Source: Trueperaceae bacterium (lineage in GTDB: Bacteria > Deinococcota > Deinococci > Deinococcales > Trueperaceae). From it: a stretch of DNA of 64,000 nucleotides. Position numbers and translations under genes: made by a program. The notes beneath the pieces were generated by a model. It was not told where the DNA came from, ran no database searches, and worked only from the letters and a program-made list of their open reading frames with translations. The DNA is taken from positions 2,816,001 through 2,880,000 of the forward strand of contig OZ243927.1 in the NCBI GenBank assembly GCA_965213925.1, read 5' to 3'. Each line of letters starts with the position of its first letter. The first letter of the stretch is position 1. Shown one piece after another: positions 146-41,857 of this stretch.

Positions 146-1279
146 ATGAGCAGCCCCAAAGAACGAGTCCTCGAAACCTTCCAAACGCGCTATGACGCCG
201 AGCCCGCCTTCTTGGTCCGCGCCCCTGGCCGCGTCAACTTTATTGGCGAACACACCGACTACAACGGCGGCTTCGTTTTACCGCTCGCGATTGACCGAGC
301 GGTGTGGCTAGCGCTAAGACCACGTGAAGACTCGAGGGTTGAAGTTCATTCGCTCGAGTTCGGCAAAACGCGCAGCTTTAACCTGAACGGCTTCGGCAAA
401 GGCGAGGGGTGGTTGGAATACCTCAAAGGCACCGCGTGGGCGCTAAAAGGCGCGGGCTATGACCTTGAGGGCTGGGAGGGAGTTAGCGGGGGTGATGTGC
501 CGCGCGGCTCCGGGCTCTCCTCGTCGGCAGCTTTAGAACTCGCCACCGCGCGGGCGTTCGCCGCTGTTTCTGACCTTCCTTGGGACGCGGTGAAGATGGC
601 AAAGCTCGCCCAGAAAGCCGAAAACGACTGGGTGGGCGTGAGCTGCGGCATCATGGATCAGCTCGCGTCGGCGGCGGGACGCGAAGGGCACGCCCTCCTG
701 ATCGACTGCCGCTCTTTAGAGATCGAGGCCGTGCCCCTACCCGAGAACACTGCCGTTGTCGTTCTCAACACCACTGAGCAGCGCGGGCTGGTCGACTCGG
801 CGTACAACGAGCGCCGTCAACAATGCGAGGAAGCGGCGCGGGCGTTCGGGGTAGAGGCGTTACGGGATGTGAGCATAGAGAGGTTCGAAGCAGAGGCGAA
901 TAAACTCGAGGAGGTCACGAAGAAGCGGGCAAAACACGTGATAAGTGAAAACGCGCGGACGCTTAGAGCGGCGGACGCGATGAAACGTGGGAACGCAGCC
1001 GTGTTGGGCACACTGATAAACGAGAGCCACGCAAGTCTGAGAGATGACTTTGAGGTCTCGAGTGACGCGCTTGACGCGGTGGTCGAATGTGCGCTACAGG
1101 CAGGCTGCTACGGCGCACGCATGACCGGCGCGGGCTTCGGGGGCTGCGCCGTGGCGCTCGTGGCGCAAGAAGAGGTCGACGCCTTTGTTCAAGAGGTCGC
1201 GCCCTGCTACGAGGAGAAAACAGGGCGCAACGCGGAAATCTACGTTTGTCACGCCACGGAGGGCGCGGCGGTCGTCTAG
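146..1279 (+). CDS. galK: Galactokinase
   Basis: GRVNFIGEHTDY signature, PRGSGLSSSAA ATP loop, CGIMDQ, GARMTGAGFGG. Confidence 0.97.
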   Translation: MSSPKERVLETFQTRYDAEPAFLVRAPGRVNFIGEHTDYNGGFVLPLAIDRAVWLALRPREDSRVEVHSLEFGKTRSFNLNGFGKGEGWLEYLKGTAWALKGAGYDLEGWEGVSGGDVPRGSGLSSSAALELATARAFAAVSDLPWDAVKMAKLAQKAENDWVGVSCGIMDQLASAAGREGHALLIDCRSLEIEAVPLPENTAVVVLNTTEQRGLVDSAYNERRQQCEEAARAFGVEALRDVSIERFEAEANKLEEVTKKRAKHVISENARTLRAADAMKRGNAAVLGTLINESHASLRDDFEVSSDALDAVVECALQAGCYGARMTGAGFGGCAVALVAQEEVDAFVQEVAPCYEEKTGRNAEIYVCHATEGAAVV

Positions 1280-1429
1280 CTAACTGCCGTCTTCGTCATC
1301 GCCACCACGCCAGAGAAGAAAGTAGAGGATCACGGCGATGATGGCTAGAACCGCCGCCACCTCGACGAAGAGGAGCAGCTTTTCCCAGATGGACAGGTCG
1401 GGAATGGCTGAAAAGCTTTCGGGAATCAT
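1280..1429 (-). CDS. Small single-TM membrane protein (49 aa, MIPESFSAIPDLSIWEKLL...WRGGDDEDGS)
   Basis: AAAGGAG RBS 7 nt before ATG at 1429; one clear hydrophobic helix and an acidic tail. Confidence 0.7.
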   Translation of the reverse strand: MIPESFSAIPDLSIWEKLLLFVEVAAVLAIIAVILYFLLWRGGDDEDGS

Positions 1430-1564
1430 GCGAAGACTCCTTTGTGCTTTGAGATTTATGCCTTGAGACTGATGAACCGGCTTCAAAAGTAGAGGGTTGG
1501 CTGCTAGGTGTTCGCCAACACCTCTCTAAAACGCTACGCCACGCATCTTTATATATGAGACGCA

Positions 1565-1930
1565 CTACAACATATCCGCCCGCCTACTCTGCGTTACGGT
1601 AGGAGAGGGCTCTTTCTCGTCTCGGTTGCGCAACAATTCTATGAGGAACACCTGTGCGACGCCAAAGCTCAGCGCGCTTATAAACCAGTTGATCCAGCGG
1701 AGCGGGTTGTCCACGTTTTGCCGCAAATTGATCGTAATGACCGCCGGACGAAAGCCCCACCGCGTGATGAAGTAAACCGCACCGAAGGCGAAGACGACGC
1801 TGAAGATACTCATGATGAGGCGCGAACCGAGCCAAGCGTCAGGGACCCACCGTTTGCCGAAGCGGTTGACGAGGAAAAAGGTGATGAAGGATATGAGTAG
1901 AAAGATAAGTGTAGTGACAAAAACGTTCAT
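1565..1930 (-). CDS. Hypothetical 3-TM membrane protein (121 aa, MNVFVTTLIF...)
   Basis: GAGGAGG RBS upstream of ATG at 1930; three hydrophobic segments. Confidence 0.75.
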   Translation of the reverse strand: MNVFVTTLIFLLISFITFFLVNRFGKRWVPDAWLGSRLIMSIFSVVFAFGAVYFITRWGFRPAVITINLRQNVDNPLRWINWFISALSFGVAQVFLIELLRNRDEKEPSPTVTQSRRADML

Positions 1931-2107
1931 GCTGAGCACCTCCTCGATGCTATTGGACGCGAATGCGGACGTTGATAACTGAGAATACGGAGCGAACGGT
2001 AGGGTTGGGCGGCTCTCATTCTCCACCCTCCGCTTCTCCGTAGGGAACAACACTCCTACACGTTACTGCGTTCTCCATGCCTAGCGGCGACGTGATGCAG
2101 GTCAAGT

Positions 2108-4927
2108 TCATGAGTCACCCCGACTCGGCTGTAAAACCTCCGACTCCGAGGTTTCCGCGTCCGGCACCGGACGCCCGAGCCACCACACGCTGAGGCGCGT
2201 GATGATGAGCACGCCCAGCCCGAGCAGGGACGCTTTGAACCAGGCAAAGCTGTCAATAGGCGCAGAGCCGAACACGGCGTTCATACCGGGCAGGTAGATA
2301 AACGCCAGTTGCAGCGCGGCGAGCACGCCGACGCTCAAGATTACCCAGGGGTTGCGTCGCTCGGACAGGCTCAGGGGCCTAGTGGGCGCGCGGATCGCGA
2401 AGAGGTAGGCGAGCTGCGCCAAGACGATACCCGTGACAGTGAGCGTCTGTATTCGGGCGAGCGTGCGTTCCGGGGAGACACTGTCGGCTAGCGCGTCGGC
2501 CAAGCCGAGATAGCTTAGAATAAGCGTACCGACAGTGAGTAAAACGCTCATCAGGGCGATAAGGGTGAGGTTGGAGCGGCTCAAGAGGGCACTTTGGCGC
2601 GAGCCGAGCGGCGTGGGGATGGACTCGAGCGCCAGCGGCAACCCCAGCAAGAGGTTGGCGACCAGGTGAACCCAGAGCGCTTGGGTGGGCAAGAGCGGCA
2701 AGAGCGTGCCGTCTCCTAGTAAAAGGGCGTAGCCCGTGCTGACCGCCAAGATCGCGAGCAGCGCGATGTTGACGGGCAGCGCAAAGGTCAGGAGCCGCGT
2801 GACGGCGGTGCGCACCTTGCCGCCCTCTTGCAGGGCGGTCAAAAGCCCCCCGATATTGTCGTCCGCTAGCACCACGTCCGCGACCTCTTTCGCCACGGAC
2901 GTACCCGACACGCCCATCGAAACGCCCACGTCGGCTTGTTTCAGTGCGGGCGCGTCGTTGACGCCGTCCCCTGGCACCGCGACGACGTGACCGTCCGCCT
3001 GGAGCGCCTTGACAAGGTCCACCTTCTGCTCCGGCGTGACTCTAGCAAAAACGTCGTGGTCGCGAACGGCTTGCGCAAACTGTTTATCTGAAAGCGCCGC
3101 TAGTTCTTCGCCCGTGATGACCTCGTCGTCCTCTCTAAGAAGCCCCAAATCTTGCCCGGTCAGCCGCGCGGTGGCGGCGTGGTCGCCCGTGATCATCTTG
3201 ACGGCGAGCCCCGCTTTTCGGCACACGTGCAGCGTCGAGCGCGCCTCGGTGCGCACCGGGTCCACGACGCCGATAAGCCCTAAAAAGGTAAAGCCGTCCT
3301 CGACGTCGCTGGTGACGAGCCGCTCGGCAGGTTCGGGCGTACGGCGCTCCGCCAGGGCGATCACGCGCAAGCCTCGCGCCGCCCACGTTTCCGCCTCGCG
3401 GCGGATGCGCGCTACGTCGAGGTCGTGTCCGTCGCTCTGGACCACGCAGCGCGGCAGAACCTCGCCTGGGTCGCCGCGCAAGGAGATGAGCCCGTACCCG
3501 GCGGGCGTGCCGTGCGAGCTGGCGGTAAAACCGCGCCACGTCTTGAAAGGAAGCGTGTCGAGTCGCGGGTAGCTCTCGCGGAGGCGGTCCGCGTTGAGGC
3601 CGAGCTTATAGCCCGCCACGACGAGCGCCCCTTCGACGGGGTCGCCTGCAATAAACCAGCCGAGCCTATCGCGTTGGAGTTTGGCGTCGCTCGAGATCAC
3701 CCCCACCTTGAGCAAGTCTTCGCCGTTCGAGGAGAGCAGCCGGACCTGTTCGTCGTCAAAGCTGAGTAGTTGTCCTTCGGGCGCATACCCCTGACCGCTC
3801 AGGTGAAAGGGCAAGGGCGGCGTCCAGAGCGAGGTCGCGGTCATCTCGTTATGAGTGAGCGCCCCCGTCTTATTCGCCAGAATCGCCGTGACGCCGCCTA
3901 AAGTTTCCGTCGCCGCAAGGTGACGCAGCGCGACGCGGTGCGCGATCAAGCGCCAAATCCCGGCGGCGAGCGCGACGGTGACGAGAATCGGCAGACCAAC
4001 CGGCGCAGCCCCCACCGCAATCGCTGAAACGGTGAGTTTAATCTCTGCGAAGGTGAAGTCGCGCCAGACGCCGCCTAGAGCGACTAACGAGGCGAGAACG
4101 GCGATGGCGATTGTCAGCGCCCAACCGATGCGGTTAAAGGTCTTCGAGAAGGGCGGCGCGTCGTGCTTGATGCGCTGAATGAGCCCCGCTAGGTGTCCCA
4201 GTTCCGTCGCCATACCCGTCGCCACGACGATGCCCGCTGCGCCGCCGCTACTCACGTAGGTACCGCTATGGAGCATGCTGTGGCGGTCGCCTACACCGAC
4301 CTCTTCGGGTGTGGGGTCGGCGTGCTTGTCGACGGGCAGCGATTCGCCTGTCAAGGCGGACTGTTTGACGCGCAGGTTGTAGGAGCTTAAGAGGCGCAAA
4401 TCGGCGGGCACCCAAGCGTCCGCCTCTAAGGTCACGATGTCGCCCGGTACGAGGTCTTCAGCCGGAACGGAGAGCTTCTGCCCGCCGCGCAAAACCGTCG
4501 CCTCGTCCGGCACGATCTTAATGAGCGCGTCGAAGGAGCGGTTCGCCCGGTACGCCTGTACGAGCCCGATAGCGAGGTTGATGCTGACCGCGACAAGGAG
4601 CACCACGCCGTCTAGGACGAGCCCGAGCCAAAAAGCTAAGACGCTCGCCACTAAAAGAACGTAGTTGAGCGGGTTGCGAAACTGACGGCGCAAGAGGTGA
4701 GTAAAAGTCTCCCCTTCGATGCGCGTCAACGCATTTGCGCCCTCCTTATTGAGCCGCTTTTTCGCCTCTTCGCTACTTAGCCCCGCCTCACTACTATTAA
4801 GTAGCGCCAACGCTTGCCGCCCTGAGAGCGCGTGCCAGGGGTACTGGGTTTGCTTGCCTTGCGCACCTTCTCGGTTGTCCTGAGCTTGCCCTCGAGCTTG
4901 ACCTCGAGCTTTTTGGTCGTCAGACAT
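2108..4927 (-). CDS. P-type (IIA-like) ATPase homologue with degenerate catalytic and ion-binding motifs
   Basis: TGES, DPVR, MITGDH, FARVTPEQK and GDGVNDAPALKQADVG retained; DKTGT reads NKTGA and PEGL reads PVGL; AAAGGAG RBS. Confidence 0.92.
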   Translation of the reverse strand: MSDDQKARGQARGQAQDNREGAQGKQTQYPWHALSGRQALALLNSSEAGLSSEEAKKRLNKEGANALTRIEGETFTHLLRRQFRNPLNYVLLVASVLAFWLGLVLDGVVLLVAVSINLAIGLVQAYRANRSFDALIKIVPDEATVLRGGQKLSVPAEDLVPGDIVTLEADAWVPADLRLLSSYNLRVKQSALTGESLPVDKHADPTPEEVGVGDRHSMLHSGTYVSSGGAAGIVVATGMATELGHLAGLIQRIKHDAPPFSKTFNRIGWALTIAIAVLASLVALGGVWRDFTFAEIKLTVSAIAVGAAPVGLPILVTVALAAGIWRLIAHRVALRHLAATETLGGVTAILANKTGALTHNEMTATSLWTPPLPFHLSGQGYAPEGQLLSFDDEQVRLLSSNGEDLLKVGVISSDAKLQRDRLGWFIAGDPVEGALVVAGYKLGLNADRLRESYPRLDTLPFKTWRGFTASSHGTPAGYGLISLRGDPGEVLPRCVVQSDGHDLDVARIRREAETWAARGLRVIALAERRTPEPAERLVTSDVEDGFTFLGLIGVVDPVRTEARSTLHVCRKAGLAVKMITGDHAATARLTGQDLGLLREDDEVITGEELAALSDKQFAQAVRDHDVFARVTPEQKVDLVKALQADGHVVAVPGDGVNDAPALKQADVGVSMGVSGTSVAKEVADVVLADDNIGGLLTALQEGGKVRTAVTRLLTFALPVNIALLAILAVSTGYALLLGDGTLLPLLPTQALWVHLVANLLLGLPLALESIPTPLGSRQSALLSRSNLTLIALMSVLLTVGTLILSYLGLADALADSVSPERTLARIQTLTVTGIVLAQLAYLFAIRAPTRPLSLSERRNPWVILSVGVLAALQLAFIYLPGMNAVFGSAPIDSFAWFKASLLGLGVLIITRLSVWWLGRPVPDAETSESEVLQPSRGDS

Positions 4928-4995
4928 ACCGCTCCTTTCTCTTAGGCATTTTAGCCCCTCGCCGGGAGGACGCGCCGTCCACGCTAGGTGCCGCC

Positions 4996-5550
4996 CTATT
5001 CGTGGGCTTCATGACCTCCACCTTCATGACCGCCGCTATGGTGGCTCAGATAGATCGCGCCGCCCATTGCCAAGATGCCCAGGCTTAAGAGGAGCAAGTC
5101 GAGGGTGGTGTCGTAGTCGAGCCCCAACGCCTGCTGCAAAAACTTCACCACTAAAATAAGTACGATAACCCGAGCCAAGCGTCCTTTAAGCCCTTCAAAC
5201 GAGTTAATATCTAGTATACGACTTGCTACCTCGGTCCCTTCGGCGCTCCGGACGTTACCGATAAACTGCCGGTAGAGCCCGAGCGTAAAGATGAAGAGCG
5301 CCGAGGCGATGAGGTACCCGTCGATAACGCCCACCACACCGCTAATCATCTGCGCGCGAAAGTCGGTGCGCGCCTCTAAGTCGAGCGACGCGTCGACGTA
5401 ACCCGAGACGCGCAAGGTGAGGTAAAAGGCGTCCACCGTCGTAATAAAGAGCATCAGTAGCCACATGAAGAAACTCGCGATGACCGCGACGAGCGTGAGA
5501 ACGCGGCTCTGCCAGAGCGCCGCTTCGAAAACGTAACCGATAACTTTCAT
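4996..5550 (-). CDS. YqhA/UPF0114 family membrane protein
   Basis: LWQSR N-terminus, IDGYLIA..IFTLGLY, LDINSFEGLKGRLA..IVLILVVKF pattern; four TM segments. Confidence 0.85.
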   Translation of the reverse strand: MKVIGYVFEAALWQSRVLTLVAVIASFFMWLLMLFITTVDAFYLTLRVSGYVDASLDLEARTDFRAQMISGVVGVIDGYLIASALFIFTLGLYRQFIGNVRSAEGTEVASRILDINSFEGLKGRLARVIVLILVVKFLQQALGLDYDTTLDLLLLSLGILAMGGAIYLSHHSGGHEGGGHEAHE

Positions 5551-6183
5551 GTACTATACCTTTTCTAACATCCATGTTTGAAAGAACATGTTGACAATTG
5601 CTGTACAGTTGGTTTTGCGCGCTCGAGCCGAAAGACGAAACGCATTGAAGGTGCAGTCGGGGCGAATAAAGTGGTGCATCCTCTCTCCTCATTGATAGTA
5701 CAAGGGTGACACTTGCGTGAGACACCTCGAGAAGACCATGACAAAACAGGTCACCAAACAGGCTTATTGTGTCACACATTCGAAGGGGGTTGTTTCGGAC
5801 GGTATAAAGTCAACTTTGAAAGGTCAGCGAAGTCCGCGCAAGACGAACGTTGACTCGGCTGAGCCGCGGGCTCTACACAAGACTACAGATTGTTTTAGAG
5901 CGTTGCAGAAGATGCCCGAAGCCTGACCTTATGGGTAGGATCGCAGCTCCTCGGCGTGGTTCCACCCGAGCGCGTCGCGGGCCACCAAAGACGAACGAAT
6001 AGGGACGCAGCAGATACAGGCGTTCAAAGGAGACATCGTGTAAAAAGTATAGCCGAGCTATCTGCTCAAGGTTGTCTTGTAAGATAGGGTAAACGGGCGT
6101 GAGGCGCGGCCAGAAGAGATATACGCTGCAGCGCTACGGTTTGGCGCGAGCCCTTCCCTTTTCGATTTGGGGTAGTCTAGGCT

Positions 6184-6474
6184 ATGCGAAGCGGCTACAG
6201 CGTCGAACAGGTCTTTTTGAGACTGCGCGGCGGCTCGGTGAAAGTAGAACTCGTTTTGGTCGCCCCGAGTGGCGCGCTCAAGCACGACACGCTGAGCTTT
6301 CCGACCCGCAGCGAATTAGAAGCGACGAAGCGCAGCGCGGCGCATCTAGCCGCCAGAGGCGACGTAGACAGCACGAGCGGCGTGAGGGTTCGCGTCGAGC
6401 GGCGCGGCGCGCTAAAAGACGAAAAGTCACTCCGAAAGCTCTTTACAGAAACCTTTGAAGACGAATTAGGGTGA
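6184..6474 (+). CDS. Hypothetical protein (96 aa)
   Basis: Leaderless-type TAGTCT box 5 nt before ATG; plausible globular composition. Confidence 0.65.
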   Translation: MRSGYSVEQVFLRLRGGSVKVELVLVAPSGALKHDTLSFPTRSELEATKRSAAHLAARGDVDSTSGVRVRVERRGALKDEKSLRKLFTETFEDELG

Positions 6475-13777: not shown

Positions 13778-16700
13778 TCACTTAGCAACCTGCGCGTAAT
13801 GCGCGTCTAGCTCAATCCCTATATCTAAAAGCGCCACGATTCGCTGTACGATTTCACCCAGCCACTGCGCGTCCTCTAGCTCCAAAACCATATCTTTGCG
13901 GTAGCCGAGCCACTTCGAGAGGACAGGGTAGCCGCCGAGCGTATACGTCCACACCTCTTTGGGCACATTCTCGAGCCACAACGCATCACTCAGATAGAGC
14001 TTTCCCTCTTTCCAAGCAGGTTTGACTACCCTAAGTTCTTCGGGAAGGTTTTCGTTAAATCGCCCTAGTGTTTCATAAGGCGCAAGTAGCGCACTTGCGT
14101 CGCTCAGCGGGTCGAGAAGCCGCGCCACCTTTCCACCGAGTTCCGCGCCCGCCTCCAACCCCGTTTTATCCTCGGGTAGCGGGATACGCGGCCAGTCCTC
14201 CGCCAAGTATTCTGCGTGGTCCTCGCGGTAGGTGGGCGCGTGCATCACGGCGAGCGTATGGTAAAAAAGCGCCTCGGAAAGCCCAAACGCCTCTTCGGTA
14301 GGTTTGCCCGCCGCGTCCTTGACGCAGCCATAGCGCGACAGCACAGGCTCAGGTTTAGGAGGCCGTTTACAGTCCTGTTTTTCCTTAGGCAGTTTGAGCA
14401 GTTTGTTCTTGACGAGTTCGTCATAGAAGTCTGAGACGTTGGGGAGGTATTGGTAGTCGTCACTGTTGTCGAAGAGTCCAGCTTGTCCGCCCTCAATGGG
14501 ATGATAGCGAAGTTTGAGAGGTAAAGCGTCGGCATCGGGATCAATCAAGTGGAGATCAATCAAGCCTTGATCAAATAAAGGTGCATCGTAACCACGACGC
14601 ATAGTTTGAGATACGCTGATAAACTTATTGTCTTCAAATACTTGCGAAAAGAACTCTTTACGCTTTTCATTGAGCAGTTTTCCTTCTTCTTCCCAGTACA
14701 AAAAGCGTTTATCAAATGGACGATAGTGATAGTTGACGATTCGCTCTTCACGATATTGGGATTTCTCGAGCAGAAGTTGGCGATTAGCAACTGGAGTATA
14801 GCGGGCAGCCTTCTTCATTAAAACAGGATTGAGCTTATCTAATTCCTTTTGTGTAACTAACGGGTCATAATATTTCTGCATAAGCTCTTCTAACGTTTTT
14901 GCTTTGAAAGCTATAACAGCTTTATCACGGTTCGTGTTTACACCATCGAAACTTACAGGAAAAATCTCTTCTAGGTTGGTCCATGTCCAATAGGCGTCTT
15001 CTCCAACAAGCGGACGCAAGAGGTAGCGGTGTTGCCTTTCGGGTTGAAAACTTTCGCTAAAAGGTTGTGCTTGGGCAGCGAGCGCAGCCCTCTTCCCTTT
15101 GCCCGTGCCTTCTCGATATTCGCGGTAGTGAACTTTAGCGGTGTCTTTATCCGGTTTGCTGCTTACAAGATGAGCAATGGCAATGCCTACGCGAACGCCG
15201 CCCGCTGTCTCGGTTGTAAACACGCTGCCGTTATTTGCGCGGTTTGAGCGTTGCGAGCCGTGCAGGTCGTCAATATAGATGCTTGAAAAGTTCTCTACAA
15301 GATGTTGGCGCATGACGGGATGTGACAAACCCGTTAGGTACGAGCGGTTCGTGATGTACGAAACGATACCTTCACCCTGATTCTCTGCGATTTGTCTTTC
15401 TGCTAGTCGGATGAAGCGGATATAGAGGTCGTCCAGCGTTTGCTTTTTGACGCCCCAAGACTGTTGCAAACATTGTTTGTAAGGTGCAATGAGGTCAGCT
15501 TGCTCGTTTTCCGCCACGCCCGAAAAACGGTCATAAGGCGGGTTGCCGATAAAGACCAGAATTTTCTCTTGCCGCTTGACGTTGTCCGCCGCCTCTTTCT
15601 CCTTGGCAAACTGCGGCCAAATCGGGGTCACGTCCTCCTTAGCATCCTTTTTCCACCCGAGCAGGCTATTTGTGAGGTAAACGCCGACGCGCTCCCCCTC
15701 GCCAAGCGCTGTACCTGCCTCTGCGAGCAAAAGCCCGAGTTGTAAGTGGGCGATAACGAAGGGTGCGGGCAGTAGTTCAAAGCCGAAGATGCGCTCTTGA
15801 AAGGCTTTTTTGACGATGCGCCCGCGCAAGGGGTTGTTGGCAAGGCGCTCGAGCATAAACTTGCCGATTTCAACCAGGTAGGACCCCGTCCCCGTCGCAG
15901 GGTCGAGCACCACCACGCGCTCGTCCATCAGCCCTTTAGCGATGTCGAGTTCGTCTTTGAGGAGTTGGTCGGTCTTCTCCACCTGATAGCGGACGATTTC
16001 ACGCGGCGTGTACCAGACGCCTAAGTCCTTGCGGAGTTGCTTGTCGAACTTCTCCAGAAAAGGTTCGTAGAAATACTGAACGGCTTGCCCTTCGTCAAAG
16101 GCTTTGAGAAACGCATCGGGGTCAACGCGCTTGAGAGCGTCTACAGCCCAGTCAATCGGGGTTTTAAGCTCGAGGTTTTTAAGTCTTCTCGGTTGCGTCA
16201 CCTCTTCGAAAAGGTCAACGACGAGCGGAACCTTGAGGTATTCGGACGCTTCGTAGAGCGTTAGCTTGTCCCCTTTACCTTGCTTAGCCGCTTCTACCCA
16301 AGCACTGAAGAGCCCGTAAAAGAGCGCTTGAACGACGCCGCTTCTAAAGAACTTTTCCCCCGCCTTGTCCTTAATCCTGATACCGAGTGCCTCCTCCATC
16401 GCTTTACGCAGTGGGGCGAGACTATCCTTCTCGGCAGCCTCGAGGCGATTGAGGGCGTCCTTGGCGTATTCAGAGAGGCGTTCGGCGAGCGCTTCAGGCT
16501 TGGTGATAGGCGTGCGCAGCTTGGTCCAGAGGTTGAGCAACTCGAGCAGCTTGGTCTCATGAGTGCTGACTACCTGGTCAAGCGGCGCATTGAGAAAGTC
16601 GTTCTGCGCAATTTCGTAGCGCTGCACCTCTTGGCTTTGATCAATAATCCAAAATTCGTAGAAGTTAGTGAGCAGCGTAGGCGCTTCTTTTGAGTAGCGT

Positions 16701-16963
16701 TGTGCTTGTTCTAAACCGTGTTTATTTTTGCTGAGCGGTGTTTTGAGCGCCTCGGCCTCGACGTATCCTTCAAAGACGTTGCTGACGCTTATGCCAATAT
16801 CAGGTAGACCTTGATGGTTACCTTTCGGCCAAGAGGTAACGTCAACCTCTTCAAGGGCAGCCTGAAGGAAATTCTTCAGCTCTGGAACGTAGCTGTTTTC
16901 GGGCGTTCCGGTATCGTTGCTGTAAATTTTTCTAACGGCGCTCAGGTAAGTTTTGAAGGACAC
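13778..16963 (-). CDS. Single-chain R-M enzyme: N-terminal PD-(D/E)xK-like domain, N6-adenine MTase and type ISP-like specificity region; no helicase
   Basis: YFYEPFL, GVWYTPREIV, VLDPATGTGSY, GNPPY, LDDLYIRFIR, YRPFD, WPRIP, YTLGGYPVLSKWL. Confidence 0.9.
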   Translation of the reverse strand: MSFKTYLSAVRKIYSNDTGTPENSYVPELKNFLQAALEEVDVTSWPKGNHQGLPDIGISVSNVFEGYVEAEALKTPLSKNKHGLEQAQRYSKEAPTLLTNFYEFWIIDQSQEVQRYEIAQNDFLNAPLDQVVSTHETKLLELLNLWTKLRTPITKPEALAERLSEYAKDALNRLEAAEKDSLAPLRKAMEEALGIRIKDKAGEKFFRSGVVQALFYGLFSAWVEAAKQGKGDKLTLYEASEYLKVPLVVDLFEEVTQPRRLKNLELKTPIDWAVDALKRVDPDAFLKAFDEGQAVQYFYEPFLEKFDKQLRKDLGVWYTPREIVRYQVEKTDQLLKDELDIAKGLMDERVVVLDPATGTGSYLVEIGKFMLERLANNPLRGRIVKKAFQERIFGFELLPAPFVIAHLQLGLLLAEAGTALGEGERVGVYLTNSLLGWKKDAKEDVTPIWPQFAKEKEAADNVKRQEKILVFIGNPPYDRFSGVAENEQADLIAPYKQCLQQSWGVKKQTLDDLYIRFIRLAERQIAENQGEGIVSYITNRSYLTGLSHPVMRQHLVENFSSIYIDDLHGSQRSNRANNGSVFTTETAGGVRVGIAIAHLVSSKPDKDTAKVHYREYREGTGKGKRAALAAQAQPFSESFQPERQHRYLLRPLVGEDAYWTWTNLEEIFPVSFDGVNTNRDKAVIAFKAKTLEELMQKYYDPLVTQKELDKLNPVLMKKAARYTPVANRQLLLEKSQYREERIVNYHYRPFDKRFLYWEEEGKLLNEKRKEFFSQVFEDNKFISVSQTMRRGYDAPLFDQGLIDLHLIDPDADALPLKLRYHPIEGGQAGLFDNSDDYQYLPNVSDFYDELVKNKLLKLPKEKQDCKRPPKPEPVLSRYGCVKDAAGKPTEEAFGLSEALFYHTLAVMHAPTYREDHAEYLAEDWPRIPLPEDKTGLEAGAELGGKVARLLDPLSDASALLAPYETLGRFNENLPEELRVVKPAWKEGKLYLSDALWLENVPKEVWTYTLGGYPVLSKWLGYRKDMVLELEDAQWLGEIVQRIVALLDIGIELDAHYAQVAK

Positions 16964-39028: not shown

Positions 39029-39481
39029 TCATGAGAACAGCGACTTACGAATTTCTACGGTGACTTCGCCGTCTGGCTCCACCTTCTTTTCTACCGCTTC
39101 GTAACCGAGGTGAAGGTAGAAGTCTAAGGCGGTGAGGCTCGAGTACGCCCTAAGCGCCTCCAAACCTCTTCCCCTTGCGACCTCTTCTACATGCGTTACC
39201 AGCAGCTTACCGACGCCACCACCATGTAAATCTGGATAGACAAACACGCTGCCGAGTTCATCTTCTTTCAAGGTCGCTGTGCCGACAACCTCTTCTTGCA
39301 CCGCCACGAAGCTCAACCGCTCGCCGAACCTCTCTCGCACCTTTCCGGGTGTGAATTCACCGCACAACCTCTCGATTTGAGAGGGCGTGTAGTCACGGCT
39401 ATTGACCTCTTTCAAACAGCGCATGATGACACCTGAGGCTCCCTCACTATCGTTGGAGTGAAAGGGACGAATCTTTATCAA
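39029..39481 (-). CDS. GNAT acetyltransferase
   Basis: VFVYPDLHGGGVGK, SSLTALDFYLHLGY. Confidence 0.9.
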   Translation of the reverse strand: MIKIRPFHSNDSEGASGVIMRCLKEVNSRDYTPSQIERLCGEFTPGKVRERFGERLSFVAVQEEVVGTATLKEDELGSVFVYPDLHGGGVGKLLVTHVEEVARGRGLEALRAYSSLTALDFYLHLGYEAVEKKVEPDGEVTVEIRKSLFS

Positions 39482-41703
39482 GAGGGCGTCAAAATCTCCT
39501 CGAACTCCAGATTCTCCGCCGCCAAAACGAACACCGTTGTAGGCAACTTGTCCGCCCGCTCCTGCAATGACTCGTAGTACGGCACGTAGTCGTCCCCTTC
39601 GGGCGCTCTCATCCCTAAAAAGACGAGGTCGGCGTTCGCGGATGACTCGCGCAAGATGTTATCGAAGGAGCGTCCGCCGGAGAGGATCACGTCGGTTTTC
39701 GCGCCCGTCCTGACGCTGTCGACCACGGCGTCTAGGTTGCGCTTCGCGCCCTCGACGCCCTTCTCCGAGCCCACCACCATCTTGATGCGGATTTCCGCGC
39801 CGCGCCAGCTCGAGGAGGTCTTTAAGAGGTACGCCAAAGTTATCATCAAGCCGCCGTTCCCTTTGAGACCGCCCCACCACACGTCGATGCGCTTGCGGTG
39901 ACCGTAACCCTTTTGGGAATTGTTATGGACGATGACCAAGTTGCGCTCCGACTGGTGAAAGTTGGCGAGCATCTGGCAGAAGCGCTCTCTTCGCTCGGAG
40001 GACTCGCTGTCACCTAAAAGCACCGTATTCGGCACGAGCGGGCCTAACCCGTAGGTTTCGACGAGCCGCTCCGCGCCCGCGAAAGCGTCGGGCGCACGCA
40101 CGATGCGCAAGAGGGCTTGCACGCCGCGCTCTTCTAGGTAGTCCTGAACGGTGCGCTCCAAAGAGTCCTCGCGCTGGGGCGAGATGGAGCGGTCGGTGAG
40201 CACGCTGGCGATGGTCACAAGCGCGCGGTTATGGGAGAGCGAGAGCGCCAAGTCCACCAGATGCCAACGTTTGGTCGGCGCGCCGGAGAGCACCAAGAGG
40301 TGAGGTCGCCAGTTTTTGGGGTCGGGGTCACTCCGCAGACGTAAAAGCCCCGCGCGCGTCACCGCCATCCAGAGTCCCTGGCGCACGTCGCCCCAGGCGG
40401 TGCGGAGTTCGCGGCGCTCCAACCACACGAAGATAACCAGCACCACGACCACCGCGATCGCCGTGGCGAGCGCGTTGATGAGGAGCATTACCGCGATACA
40501 ACCCACCGCGCCTAAGAGCGACCACGCCCAGTGCACCTGAAACTTGGGGCGGTACGACGGGCTCGCCAACATCCGCTCGACCGCCGCCGCGATATTGAGG
40601 ACGCCGTAGGTGGTCAAAAAGAACATCGTGAGAATCGGCGCGATGAGGTTGAGGTTGCCGAAGTACACCGCCGCCAACGCCACGCCCAAGGTGACGAACG
40701 TGCCGATGCGCGGCTGGTCCGACTCGCCGCTGCCGCGACCCAACCAGCGCAGCATGGGCGGCAACACGCCGTCACGCGCTAAGGCTTGCAGCACCCTAGG
40801 CGCACCGAGGATGCTGCCTAGGGCGCTCGAGAGCGTCGCCCCCCATACGCCTAAAAGGATCGCGTCGCCCCAGAACGCCATCTTGCGCATGATCAAAGGG
40901 TCCTCGATGAGCGTCACCGCGTCCGCCCTGGTCGCCAGCAAGATAGGCAGCAGCATGTAGATGACGTAGCCCACGCCCACCGCCGCAAAGGTGCCGAGCG
41001 GGATGGACTTTGCCGGGTTGCGCAGGTCGCCCGAGAGATTCACGCCCGCCATGATGCCCGTAACCGCCGGAAAAAAAACCGCGAAAACCGTCCAAAAGGG
41101 TTCCGAAACGCGGTCCGACGCGCCGAACATCTCGATGTTGGACTGCTCTATAGGTCCGCCGAAAAGCAGCGACAGCAGTGAAATCGCAATCGCCGTCATG
41201 ATGATGTACTGCGAGCGGATCACGATTTGCGCCGAGATGAGCGCCAGCGCCGCTACGCCAAGCGTAACCACAATGCCTACGGTGCGCTGGTCCAACTCAG
41301 GGAACACGCCCGCCAAACTCTCCGCAAAACCGATCGTATAGAGTGAAACCGACAGCGCTTGCGCGAAGTAGAGCGGGATGCCCACCGCGCCGCCCGTCTC
41401 GATGCCCAAAGAGCGGCTGATCATGTAGTACGCGCCGCCGATGCGCACGCGCTGGTCGGTAGCGATGGCTGAAATCGAAAGGGTCGTCAAAAAAGTGATG
41501 GACGTAGCGAGCGTGACGATGGCGAGCGTGCCGATGAGCCCCGCGTTGCCGACCACCCAGCCGAACCGCAAATACATGATGACGCCCAAGATCGTCAGGA
41601 TGGAGGGGGTGAAGACGCCGCCGAAGGTGCCGAGCTTGCCGTCTTGCGGGGCGGGTTCGGAAGAACCAGACTCAGAGGAAAAAAAGGAGAGAGGATTTTT
41701 CAT
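39478..41703 (-). CDS. Prokaryotic cation-chloride cotransporter (SLC12/CCC-like APC transporter)
   Basis: GVFTPSILTILGVIMYLR, GGAYYMISRSLG, FFPAVTGIMAG..LSGDL, KNWRP, IDVWW. Confidence 0.92.
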   Translation of the reverse strand: MKNPLSFFSSESGSSEPAPQDGKLGTFGGVFTPSILTILGVIMYLRFGWVVGNAGLIGTLAIVTLATSITFLTTLSISAIATDQRVRIGGAYYMISRSLGIETGGAVGIPLYFAQALSVSLYTIGFAESLAGVFPELDQRTVGIVVTLGVAALALISAQIVIRSQYIIMTAIAISLLSLLFGGPIEQSNIEMFGASDRVSEPFWTVFAVFFPAVTGIMAGVNLSGDLRNPAKSIPLGTFAAVGVGYVIYMLLPILLATRADAVTLIEDPLIMRKMAFWGDAILLGVWGATLSSALGSILGAPRVLQALARDGVLPPMLRWLGRGSGESDQPRIGTFVTLGVALAAVYFGNLNLIAPILTMFFLTTYGVLNIAAAVERMLASPSYRPKFQVHWAWSLLGAVGCIAVMLLINALATAIAVVVVLVIFVWLERRELRTAWGDVRQGLWMAVTRAGLLRLRSDPDPKNWRPHLLVLSGAPTKRWHLVDLALSLSHNRALVTIASVLTDRSISPQREDSLERTVQDYLEERGVQALLRIVRAPDAFAGAERLVETYGLGPLVPNTVLLGDSESSERRERFCQMLANFHQSERNLVIVHNNSQKGYGHRKRIDVWWGGLKGNGGLMITLAYLLKTSSSWRGAEIRIKMVVGSEKGVEGAKRNLDAVVDSVRTGAKTDVILSGGRSFDNILRESSANADLVFLGMRAPEGDDYVPYYESLQERADKLPTTVFVLAAENLEFEEILTPS

Positions 41704-41857
41704 GGGAATGAGGTCATGGTAACAGGTTTGAGAATTCAGGAGCGCAGACAGCCTTACGCAACCGTGAGGCACTTCATTAAGCCCGAACCTCACTTATGAA
41801 AAATGTCACATTCATAACGTTTTTTTGTTACACTTATCCAAGTCAAAGGAGGCTTTC

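Follow-up and report, generated by a model that had tools for sequence, protein, structure and literature searches.

The window analyzed in this study comprises 64,000 nucleotides (nt) of a Trueperaceae genome (GenBank assembly GCA_965213925.1, contig OZ243927.1, positions 2,816,001 to 2,880,000) and encodes, on its reverse strand, a P2-type ATPase homologue (P0001, used as query), in which the catalytic aspartate of the P-type ATPases is replaced by asparagine. The gene is part of the order galK, a gene for a membrane protein of 121 amino acids (aa), the ATPase gene, and a gene for a UPF0114/YqhA-family membrane protein, and this order is kept in both sister genomes. The locus and the motifs discussed below are listed in Table 1. 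According to the open reading frame (ORF) list and the translation, the ATPase frame starts with ATG and runs through 939 codons with zero internal stops. Its G+C content at third codon positions (GC3, 0.773) is typical of the genes in the window (0.745 ± 0.059), indicating a native codon composition, and a compositional sign of horizontal transfer was sought for this gene and not found. The scan of the window against Rfam returned zero matches.

Table 1. Features of the ATPase locus, with positions given in the window.
Feature	Position	Strand	Basis or remark
Pseudo-P-type ATPase gene, 939 aa, P2-type layout, Asn for the catalytic Asp	2108..4927	-	ORF, translation, Pfam
Shine-Dalgarno sequence AAGGAG of the ATPase gene	4932..4937	-	4 nt ahead of the ATG at 4927
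AAT codon for Asn352, site of the phosphorylated Asp of DKTGT, in ILANKTGALT	3872..3874	-	translation
PVGL of transmembrane segment 4 (TM4), aa 309-312; cation-binding Glu of PEGL replaced by Val310	3992..4003	-	translation
RGDPGE, aa 484-489, in place of KGAPE of the N domain	3461..3478	-	translation
WVHLVAN of TM6, aa 752-758; His754 for the conserved TM6 Asn	2654..2674	-	translation, alignment
TGES, aa 193-196, dephosphorylation loop of the A domain, kept	4340..4351	-	ALTGESLPVDKH identical in the g1 lineage and P0005
GDGVND, aa 653-658, Mg2+/phosphate site of the P domain, kept	2954..2971	-	invariant in 82 of 82 alignment rows
UPF0114/YqhA-family membrane protein gene, 184 aa	4996..5550	-	PF03350, E 5.4e-24, 85.1 bits (cut-off 23.1)
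Lineage-specific membrane protein gene, 121 aa, 3' of the ATPase gene	1565..1930	-	kept in both sister species
Shine-Dalgarno sequence GAGGAGG of the 121-aa gene	1939..1945	-	ahead of the ATG at 1930

The full domain set of P2-type ATPases was recognized in the protein, all five Pfam domains exceeding their cut-offs (Cation_ATPase_N, residues 31-97; E1-E2_ATPase, 138-328; Cation_ATPase, 414-494; Hydrolase, 526-666; Cation_ATPase_C, 743-913). A hydropathy scan gave peaks for TM2 to TM10 where expected, with TM1 lying under the threshold used. The superfamily model TIGR01494 assigned the protein to the P-type ATPases (233.7 bits, cut-off 62.3), and the protein fell below the cut-offs of the P2A Ca2+-ATPase equivalog TIGR01116 (375.1 bits, cut-off 703.4) and of the PMR1-type model TIGR01522 (457.2 bits, cut-off 798.3), for which its 52%-identical relative P0005 achieved 441 bits. 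The nearest relatives possessing the catalytic Asp, referred to as real pumps in the following, likewise remained under the PMR1-type cut-off of 798 with 660-680 bits, and no nearest real relative tested attained an NCBIfam equivalog cut-off. The closest solved structure is that of the Listeria Ca2+-ATPase LMCA1 (6zhf; E 3.8e-114, aligned residues 36-909). In this alignment, Asn352 takes the place of the phosphorylated Asp, Val310 that of the TM4 Glu, and His754 and Asn758 those of the TM6 Asn and Asp. Hence, the phosphorylatable Asp that gives the P-type family its name is missing, as are the PEGL Glu and the TM6 Asn/Asp ligands of the P2A Ca2+-ATPases. Without the phosphorylated Asp no aspartyl phosphate forms, and the E1P/E2P cycle of phosphorylated conformations does not take place. 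Given the Asn at this site, the ATPase cannot run the cycle, and the loss of the TM4 Glu, which is used by every relative for cation binding, implies that it is not an ATP-driven pump.

The original prediction, deduced from the DNA sequence by itself, had described an uninterrupted 939-aa frame featuring NKTGA, PVGL, RGDPGE, NIAL (aa 720-723, TM5), and WVHLVAN, together with retained TGES, MITGD (578-582), FARVTPEQK (627-635), and GDGVND motifs, all of which were found in the translation. To place these changes, five representatives of the clade of Asn-bearing proteins were compared with the 54 nearest real pumps, which were selected from the 59 best matches as canonical proteins of 850-1000 aa. 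In total, 276 columns are at least 93% conserved in the 54 real pumps; 157 of them are kept in all five clade representatives and 119 are altered in at least one clade member. Lys of KGAPE, present in 54 of 54 real pumps, is Arg in all five representatives, the final Thr of DKTGT is replaced by Ala or Ser in the clade, and the residue preceding the phosphorylation site, which is Ser or Thr in real pumps, is Ala or Phe. PEGL is present in the 54 real pumps. In the g1 lineage, to which the protein of the window belongs, the 11 other clade sequences spanning TM4 all have PVGL, and P0005 reads PLSL. Every clade sequence spanning TM6 features LWVHL, the real relatives having LWiNLVaa, which lacks the Asp. 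Moreover, the stalk-5 (S5) string RRvYDN, linking the P domain to TM5, is replaced by GKVRTA or QQIRNT.

With regard to the ion ligands of TM4 to TM6, which had all been regarded as lost, this picture had to be revised in part. The replacements of the TM4 Glu by Val or Leu and of the TM6 Asn by His stood up to comparison. However, the TM6 Asp is missing from the 54 nearest real pumps (38-44% identical), and most of them also lack the TM5 Glu. Judged by the alignment, the differences at the TM5 Glu and the TM6 Asp are ancestral and not losses, and the clade-specific TM losses are those of the TM4 Glu and the TM6 Asn alone. Since the nearest real pumps have no such Asp, the ancestor was not a SERCA-like pump with two sites. 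A family with PEGL and no TM6 Asp, P6/CtpE, is described in the accessible text of Palmgren's review (PMC10654040).

The remainder of the catalytic head is retained to a large extent. In an alignment of 82 rows (8 clade rows and 74 real pumps taken from the 270 proteins described below, minus fragments and long fused forms), K353, T354, G355, F461, R521, D556, R559, T580, G581, D582, R629, K635, and G653-D658 are invariant in all rows, and so are Gly and Glu of TGES. The superfamily motifs TGES, TGD, the P-domain Lys, and GDGxND are thus invariant or nearly so.

To evaluate the distribution of the Asn-bearing proteins, a word-indexed protein search was evaluated for the best 120 of 5666 matches; among these, the identities to the ATPase were 91, 81, 75, and 52%, followed by none above 44%. 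An exhaustive search of 1.84 billion representatives yielded the 52% protein P0005 and then 41%. Asp occupies the site in 265 of the 270 proteins returned by both searches (one of the 265, P0165, reading DKSHT), and Asn was found in the query and its four closest relatives. The four 90% clusters of the clade contain 14 sequences, of which 13, originating from at least 11 different contigs, span the site and read NKTG, the fourteenth being a C-terminal fragment. A scan of genome_contigs with P0001 detected 80 loci, all of them real pumps of at most 43% identity; together with 17 loci from the family, 96 of these 97 loci encode Asp, and the remaining one ends ahead of the site. Orthologues of the ATPase are present in all three species of the genus represented by the window (100, 92, and 76% identity). 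The ATPase was not found in the other 360 genomes of the order nor, with P0005 as query, in the other 361 genomes of the phylum, genome completeness varying, so that these results do not equal absence. With P0005, the metagenome scan gave a single unrelated locus (36% identity), and the best match of the plasmid search reached 38% identity.

Accordingly, an error of sequencing or assembly at the Asp codon, by which GAT would have been turned into AAT through one base, is a practically negligible explanation. Nothing in its favor was found; Asn is carried by 13 of 13 sequences, and dozens of further substitutions specific to the clade go along with it. The stretch is present in two sequencing runs only, both of one sample that is possibly the source sample, and the independent contig assemblies of these runs (Logan; positions 3728-3953 and 3946-4237) match it exactly, with zero differences, so that the AAT codon and the TM4 Val codon are also confirmed by data built from reads.

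A quick maximum-likelihood (ML) tree was calculated from 36 rows, including 8 clade members and 28 real pumps sampled at regular steps from the two match lists (850-1010 aa). The Asn proteins group on a single branch with an SH-aLRT (Shimodaira-Hasegawa-like approximate likelihood ratio test) support of 100, and a single change of state therefore suffices. The stem of the clade is 0.64 changes per site long; beyond it, the branches leading to the genus and to P0005 measure 0.48 and 0.63, respectively. Both lineages share Asn352, Arg484, His754, and Gln189 and have Val or Leu instead of Glu at position 310, indicating that the loss of catalysis and of the cation site predates their separation. 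The existence of an NKTG clade devoid of the TM4 Glu, as it had been envisaged in the original prediction, is thus established.

The selection acting on the gene was determined for the three congeneric species. Under the codon model GY+F3X4, the ratio of nonsynonymous to synonymous changes (dN/dS, omega) of the ATPase was 0.082 over 925 codons, which equals the values of the neighboring genes galK (0.088) and UPF0114 (0.083) under the same model. Pairwise Nei-Gojobori (NG86) ratios were 0.087 (dS 0.57), 0.19, and 0.20, with dS values among the species ranging between 0.57 and 0.87. Every domain showed an NG86 omega below 0.27, and the loop around Asn352 one of about 0-0.02. Purifying selection maintains the gene in at least two lineages, between which divergence amounts to approximately 48%. 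With a catalytic residue gone, the fold kept, and purifying selection and conservation reaching beyond one genome, the protein corresponds in these respects to what is called a pseudoenzyme.

These values also bear on the proposal that the gene was inactivated recently, stop codons having yet to accumulate. The long stem branch and the 119 altered columns are in line with such a pseudogene, as is one metagenome contig (8042 nt) on which the gene is split into ORFs of 697 aa and 230 aa (P0276 and P0277) by a frame change near residue 680; the split reflects either faulty assembly or a genuinely disrupted gene in one strain. In contrast, omega is as low as in housekeeping neighbors, the frame is intact in three species and in the 52%-identical lineage, and 0 out of 500 simulated neutral copies kept an open frame at 0.1 changes per site, compared with an observed dS of at least 0.57. 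Near-clonal misassembly of the three genomes is excluded by the dS values. A young pseudogene, already highly improbable, was therefore rejected on the basis of purifying selection, intact frames, and derived residues shared by both lineages. Clade-wide Asn in combination with purifying selection is better explained by a repurposed protein than by a sequencing error, as originally proposed for the intact ORF. The two conditions under which the original prediction would have failed, namely DKTGT/PEGL in all closest homologues along with neutral evolution, or GAT and GAA/GAG codons in the reads, were both contradicted.

To find out where along the protein this selection acts, P0001 and P0005 (52% identical) were compared with 917 pairs of real pumps of 47-57% identity, formed from 68 sequences and not mutually independent. 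Identity between the two lineages is elevated in the N domain (61%, compared with 41 ± 3% in real-pump pairs), in the A domain (66% vs. 54 ± 5%), and in the N-terminal segment (56% vs. 37 ± 7%), and it is reduced in TM3-4 (36% vs. 55 ± 6%), in the phosphorylation loop (63% vs. 86 ± 7%), and in S5-TM5-6 (43% vs. 64 ± 7%). Expressed in standard deviations (sd), TM3-4, the phosphorylation loop, and TM5-6 lie about 3 sd lower and the N domain about 6 sd higher than in real pumps of equal divergence; TM3-4, S5-TM5-6, and TM7-10 (34%) are the least conserved parts. Within the genus, for which 58 real-pump pairs of 68-84% identity served as reference, the N domain (75-81% vs. 55 ± 8%) and the N-terminal segment (78-81% vs. 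44 ± 9%) were again elevated, TM5-6 was slightly low (82.7% vs. 88.2 ± 4.1%), and TM3-4 and the phosphorylation loop showed no difference. The N domain contains 38 positions (20 per 100 aa) that vary among real pumps and are invariant in the clade, compared with 1 in S5-TM5-6 and 0 in the phosphorylation loop, and canonically conserved positions are altered in the clade to 70% in TM3-4 and to 19% in the A domain. Constraint has shifted away from the phosphorylation loop and the ion pathway in the membrane, towards the cytoplasmic N domain and, less strongly, the A domain.

The main rival interpretation has to be considered in the light of these values, namely that the protein is a passive transporter, a channel, or a membrane ligand-binding protein, whose pathway was remodelled by the exchanges of the TM4 Glu for Val or Leu and of the TM6 Asn for His, and which operates with no turnover of ATP. 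All ten TM segments are kept in the alignment to real pumps, the TM regions show an omega of 0.06-0.19 within the genus, and neither lineage deviates at P309, W752, or LWVHL; the fixed His754 is in line with a remodelled pathway. However, it is in TM3-4, S5-TM5-6, and TM7-10 that the lineages have diverged furthest, most canonically conserved TM3-4 positions are altered, and the extra constraint resides in the cytoplasmic N domain, where a passive pore would not need it. Altogether, this interpretation is considered quite unlikely.

Taken together, it is very likely that the ATPase neither runs an E1P/E2P cycle nor acts as an ATP-driven pump, and yet is kept by selection with relocated constraint. 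Since all other motifs in contact with phosphate, Mg2+, and adenine (K353, T354, G355, F461, R521, TGD, K635, and GDGVND) are retained and the N domain is under additional constraint, we infer that the head still binds Mg-nucleotide. The protein probably performs a new, non-pumping job, as far as this can be read from its sequence. With moderate confidence, it may be regarded as a pump-derived pseudoenzyme, perhaps a nucleotide-binding, membrane-anchored switch or regulator. The retained motifs suggest that the head would bind Mg-nucleotide and close over it with no turnover, similar to engineered Asp-to-Asn pumps, which reportedly become trapped in an E1-like state. In that case, the protein would serve as a switch, sensor, or scaffold that depends on nucleotide, is anchored in the membrane, and may work with or on the UPF0114/YqhA membrane protein encoded directly upstream. 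The narrower assignment as nucleotide-binding switch or regulator is tentative and somewhat short of an even chance, and the YqhA protein is a doubtful candidate for its partner.

An energy-using enzyme with non-canonical chemistry has also to be weighed, in which bound ATP would be hydrolyzed directly by water that the retained Glu of TGES activates, another residue would be phosphorylated, or Asn352 would be converted to Asp post-translationally. This very improbable model is kept alive mainly by the TGES loop and its flank (ALTGESLPVDKH), which are identical across lineages that are 48% diverged; the only function known for this loop is the hydrolysis of aspartyl phosphate. All Mg2+/phosphate ligands bar the nucleophile are kept as well. 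On the other hand, no other acidic residue, Ser, or Thr is located beside Asn352, the preceding residue being Ala or Phe, and the stalk-5 residues coupling the P domain to TM5 are replaced. Recoding of the Asn352 codon by adenosine-to-inosine editing, which in bacteria needs a UACG context, finds no such context there. Furthermore, engineered Asp-to-Asn pumps form no phosphoenzyme according to the accessible part of PMC13322241.

The original prediction had also considered that the ATPase might regulate another pump. The only other P-type ATPase of the genome is a CopA-type copper pump; the sister species G035 has the same second P-type hit, and in the sister species G056 (97% complete) a generic P-type ATPase model found the pseudo-pump only, with no CopA-type or other P-type ATPase. 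Consequently, regulation of a paralogous P2 pump, and of another pump in general, is unlikely.

Regarding the genomic neighborhood, the UPF0114 gene is located immediately upstream of the ATPase gene in all three species, in this genome on the same strand with a gap of 68 bp; folding of the spacer (73 nt) revealed nothing unusual (z 1.27). UPF0114 homologues of 77-85% identity were found on contigs equal in size to those of four further clade ATPases (783206, 34518, 27455, and 8042 nt). Outside the lineage, the UPF0114 protein is closest to P0300 (64%), which agrees with P0005 in source and contig size (Logan, 4938 nt); as judged from this agreement, the UPF0114-ATPase pair very probably also exists beside P0005 and hence across the deep split. 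No UPF0114 gene was detected next to the 97 real-relative loci, and for 7 further UPF0114 genes in the phylum, no P-type ATPase was detected within 1.5 kb. Within the phylum, the UPF0114 subgroup is represented by the genus and by one 51% copy from a genome with 9% contamination (G018), the 2.1-kb contig of which ends 120 bases past the gene and is uninformative on neighbors. In the UPF0114 tree, the subgroup received a support of 99, its inner order not being resolved. The pairing of the two genes may not be obligate. A complex prediction for ATPase residues 58-345 and 695-918 with the whole UPF0114 protein scored 0.00, which is no evidence either way. A relative of UPF0114 was not found in the PDB search, and a function of YqhA/UPF0114 was not found in the literature. 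PADLOC gave zero hits for the ATPase, UPF0114, and 121-aa proteins.

If these pieces are combined, a pump fold turned receptor can be conceived: its head would bind ATP or another nucleotide tightly with no phosphate transfer, and the open and closed states would control the YqhA protein through the A domain and the TGES loop. Derived from sequence comparison, this elaborate version is unlikely; if it applied, a dead ion pump would have become a bacterial sensor of the energy state, and a first access to the function of the widespread UPF0114/YqhA family would be gained.

Several observations weigh against a nucleotide-dependent switch coupled to UPF0114. Two nucleotide contacts are themselves altered (KGAPE Lys to Arg, the last DKTGT Thr to Ala or Ser), and binding is deduced from the retention of motifs. 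The perfectly conserved flank of TGES is left unexplained by a switch. The fixed P309, W752, and new His754 make a role in the membrane conceivable, such as a channel or a binding site, and the omega of the TM regions shows that, within the genus, purifying selection continues to act on the membrane domain. Furthermore, the comparison of constraint effectively involves two lineages, seven of the eight clade rows being 76-92% alike. The reach of the clade is limited to one genus of 60 in the phylum and one metagenomic lineage, and one copy within it is split. The linkage at P0005 is deduced from contig size and source, P0300 is not resolved as sister to the genus clade, and the contig sizes of six further UPF0114 relatives of the subgroup (P0301-P0306, 57-62%) match none of the best 120 of the 5666 ATPase matches.

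Among known systems, the uncharacterized bacterial P2-type pumps annotated as 'cation-translocating / HAD-IC family P-type ATPase' (such as P0006, P0010, and P0011) are closest to the ATPase. They resemble it in length, in the five Pfam domains, and in the ten TM helices, are 38-44% identical to it, and represent the sister group on the tree. However, they possess DKTGT, PEGL, KGAPE, and the TM6 Asn, whereas the clade features NKTG(A/S), P(V/L)(G/S)L, RG.., and the TM6 His, and conservation is spread differently along the protein. KdpFABC offers a parallel to the locus, since KdpB, a P-type ATPase, shares its operon with a separate membrane subunit carrying part of the function, just as the ATPase gene lies beside another membrane protein gene. 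UPF0114/YqhA is unrelated to KdpA, and KdpB, as described in the accessible text of PMC10654040, keeps Asp307 and energizes transport. Na,K-ATPase, too, acts through protein complexes and not transport in its signalling and scaffolding roles, as far as covered by the available part of PMC6152704; it is catalytically competent with a non-pumping role added, whereas the clade protein lost the pumping chemistry outright.

The substitution itself is familiar from SERCA D351N, Na,K-ATPase D369N, H,K-ATPase D386N, and ERMA D427N, which concern the same residue. In SERCA, Na,K-ATPase, and H,K-ATPase it prevents the phosphoenzyme and traps an E1-like form (PMC13322241, accessible part). These are laboratory or disease mutants of working pumps, whereas the change in the clade is natural, old, and fixed, and goes along with the loss of the cation site and new constraint in the N domain. 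A natural counterpart exists in P4GC (P4-ATPase-guanylate cyclase) of alveolates and stramenopiles, in which, according to the available text of PMC13466520, some lineages (Cryptosporidium, P4GC-beta, gregarines, and Tetrahymena) show changes at the DKTGT Asp and the A-domain Glu. The altered P-type module persists nonetheless, and the authors discuss that it might play a supporting role other than pumping. As far as the available part of 10.1101/475848 indicates, the Toxoplasma member retains DKTGT. However, P4GC is eukaryotic, of the P4 flippase type, and fused to an output cyclase, whereas the clade protein is bacterial, stand-alone, and P2-type, keeps the TGES Glu, and has no output domain.

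Variants of DKTGT have also been counted by Pedersen et al. (2014). In the accessible text of that survey (PMC3896382), the motif is present in 99.77% of the P-type ATPases, single changes concern 22 out of 9,634 UniProtKB entries, 17 of them bacterial, and the rare exceptions are left unexplained, being read as possible sequencing errors, or as non-functional or highly specialized pumps. An NKTG entry of bacterial origin may already be among them; unlike the clade described here, these variants were counted, within that text, without analysis of conservation, selection, or context. A description of a stand-alone bacterial P2-type Asn clade was not found in the literature searched, most subscription journals being outside the reach of that search.

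The clade demonstrates that a stand-alone bacterial member of the P-type family can lose both the aspartyl-phosphate chemistry and the cation site and yet be kept as strongly as a housekeeping gene. It represents a natural counterpart of the Asp-to-Asn mutants used for trapping pumps and a testable example of other uses of the pump scaffold, such as nucleotide sensing, gating, or scaffolding, and it offers a candidate partner for the uncharacterized YqhA family. The small size of the clade limits the generality of the finding.

Further features were recorded in the vicinity of the ATPase gene. The 121-aa protein has 12 homologues in total, all at least 65% identical, and belongs to no Pfam family; it is a lineage orphan. 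Three of its homologues are located on contigs equal in size to clade ATPase contigs, and the ESM Atlas provided no usable lead for it (best score 0.87). In the UPF0114 protein, residues ~93-96 read GLY(R/K)QF in the subgroup and GLYELF in the other aligned YqhA homologues except P0309, a conserved Glu being replaced by a basic residue. A scan of positions 1200-6200 for promoters and terminators gave nothing exceeding shuffled sequences. A sigma-70-like match (TTCAAA, 18 nt, TATAGT) lies at 5553-5582 (-), ending 3 nt ahead of the UPF0114 start, the count of such matches not being above shuffles; if real, it would render the operon mRNA nearly leaderless. A GAGGAGAGAGGATG-like string, consisting of a Shine-Dalgarno sequence and an ATG, is recognizable in all three species approximately 140 nt upstream of the UPF0114 start (about 5680-5700, -). 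In this genome it opens a frame of ~44 codons, which may encode a leader peptide or be due to chance.

Elsewhere in the window, a Type ISP restriction-modification enzyme of 1061 aa (Pfam Type_ISP_C, N6_Mtase, and Eco57I) is encoded at 13778-16963 (-). Its GC3 of 0.58 lies below that of the other genes in the window (0.745 ± 0.059), indicating that it was probably acquired horizontally. Finally, the 771-aa protein encoded at 39478-41793 (-) matches the K-Cl cotransporter model TIGR00930 with 473 bits, under the cut-off of 953, and represents a cation-chloride cotransporter-like gene in a bacterium.

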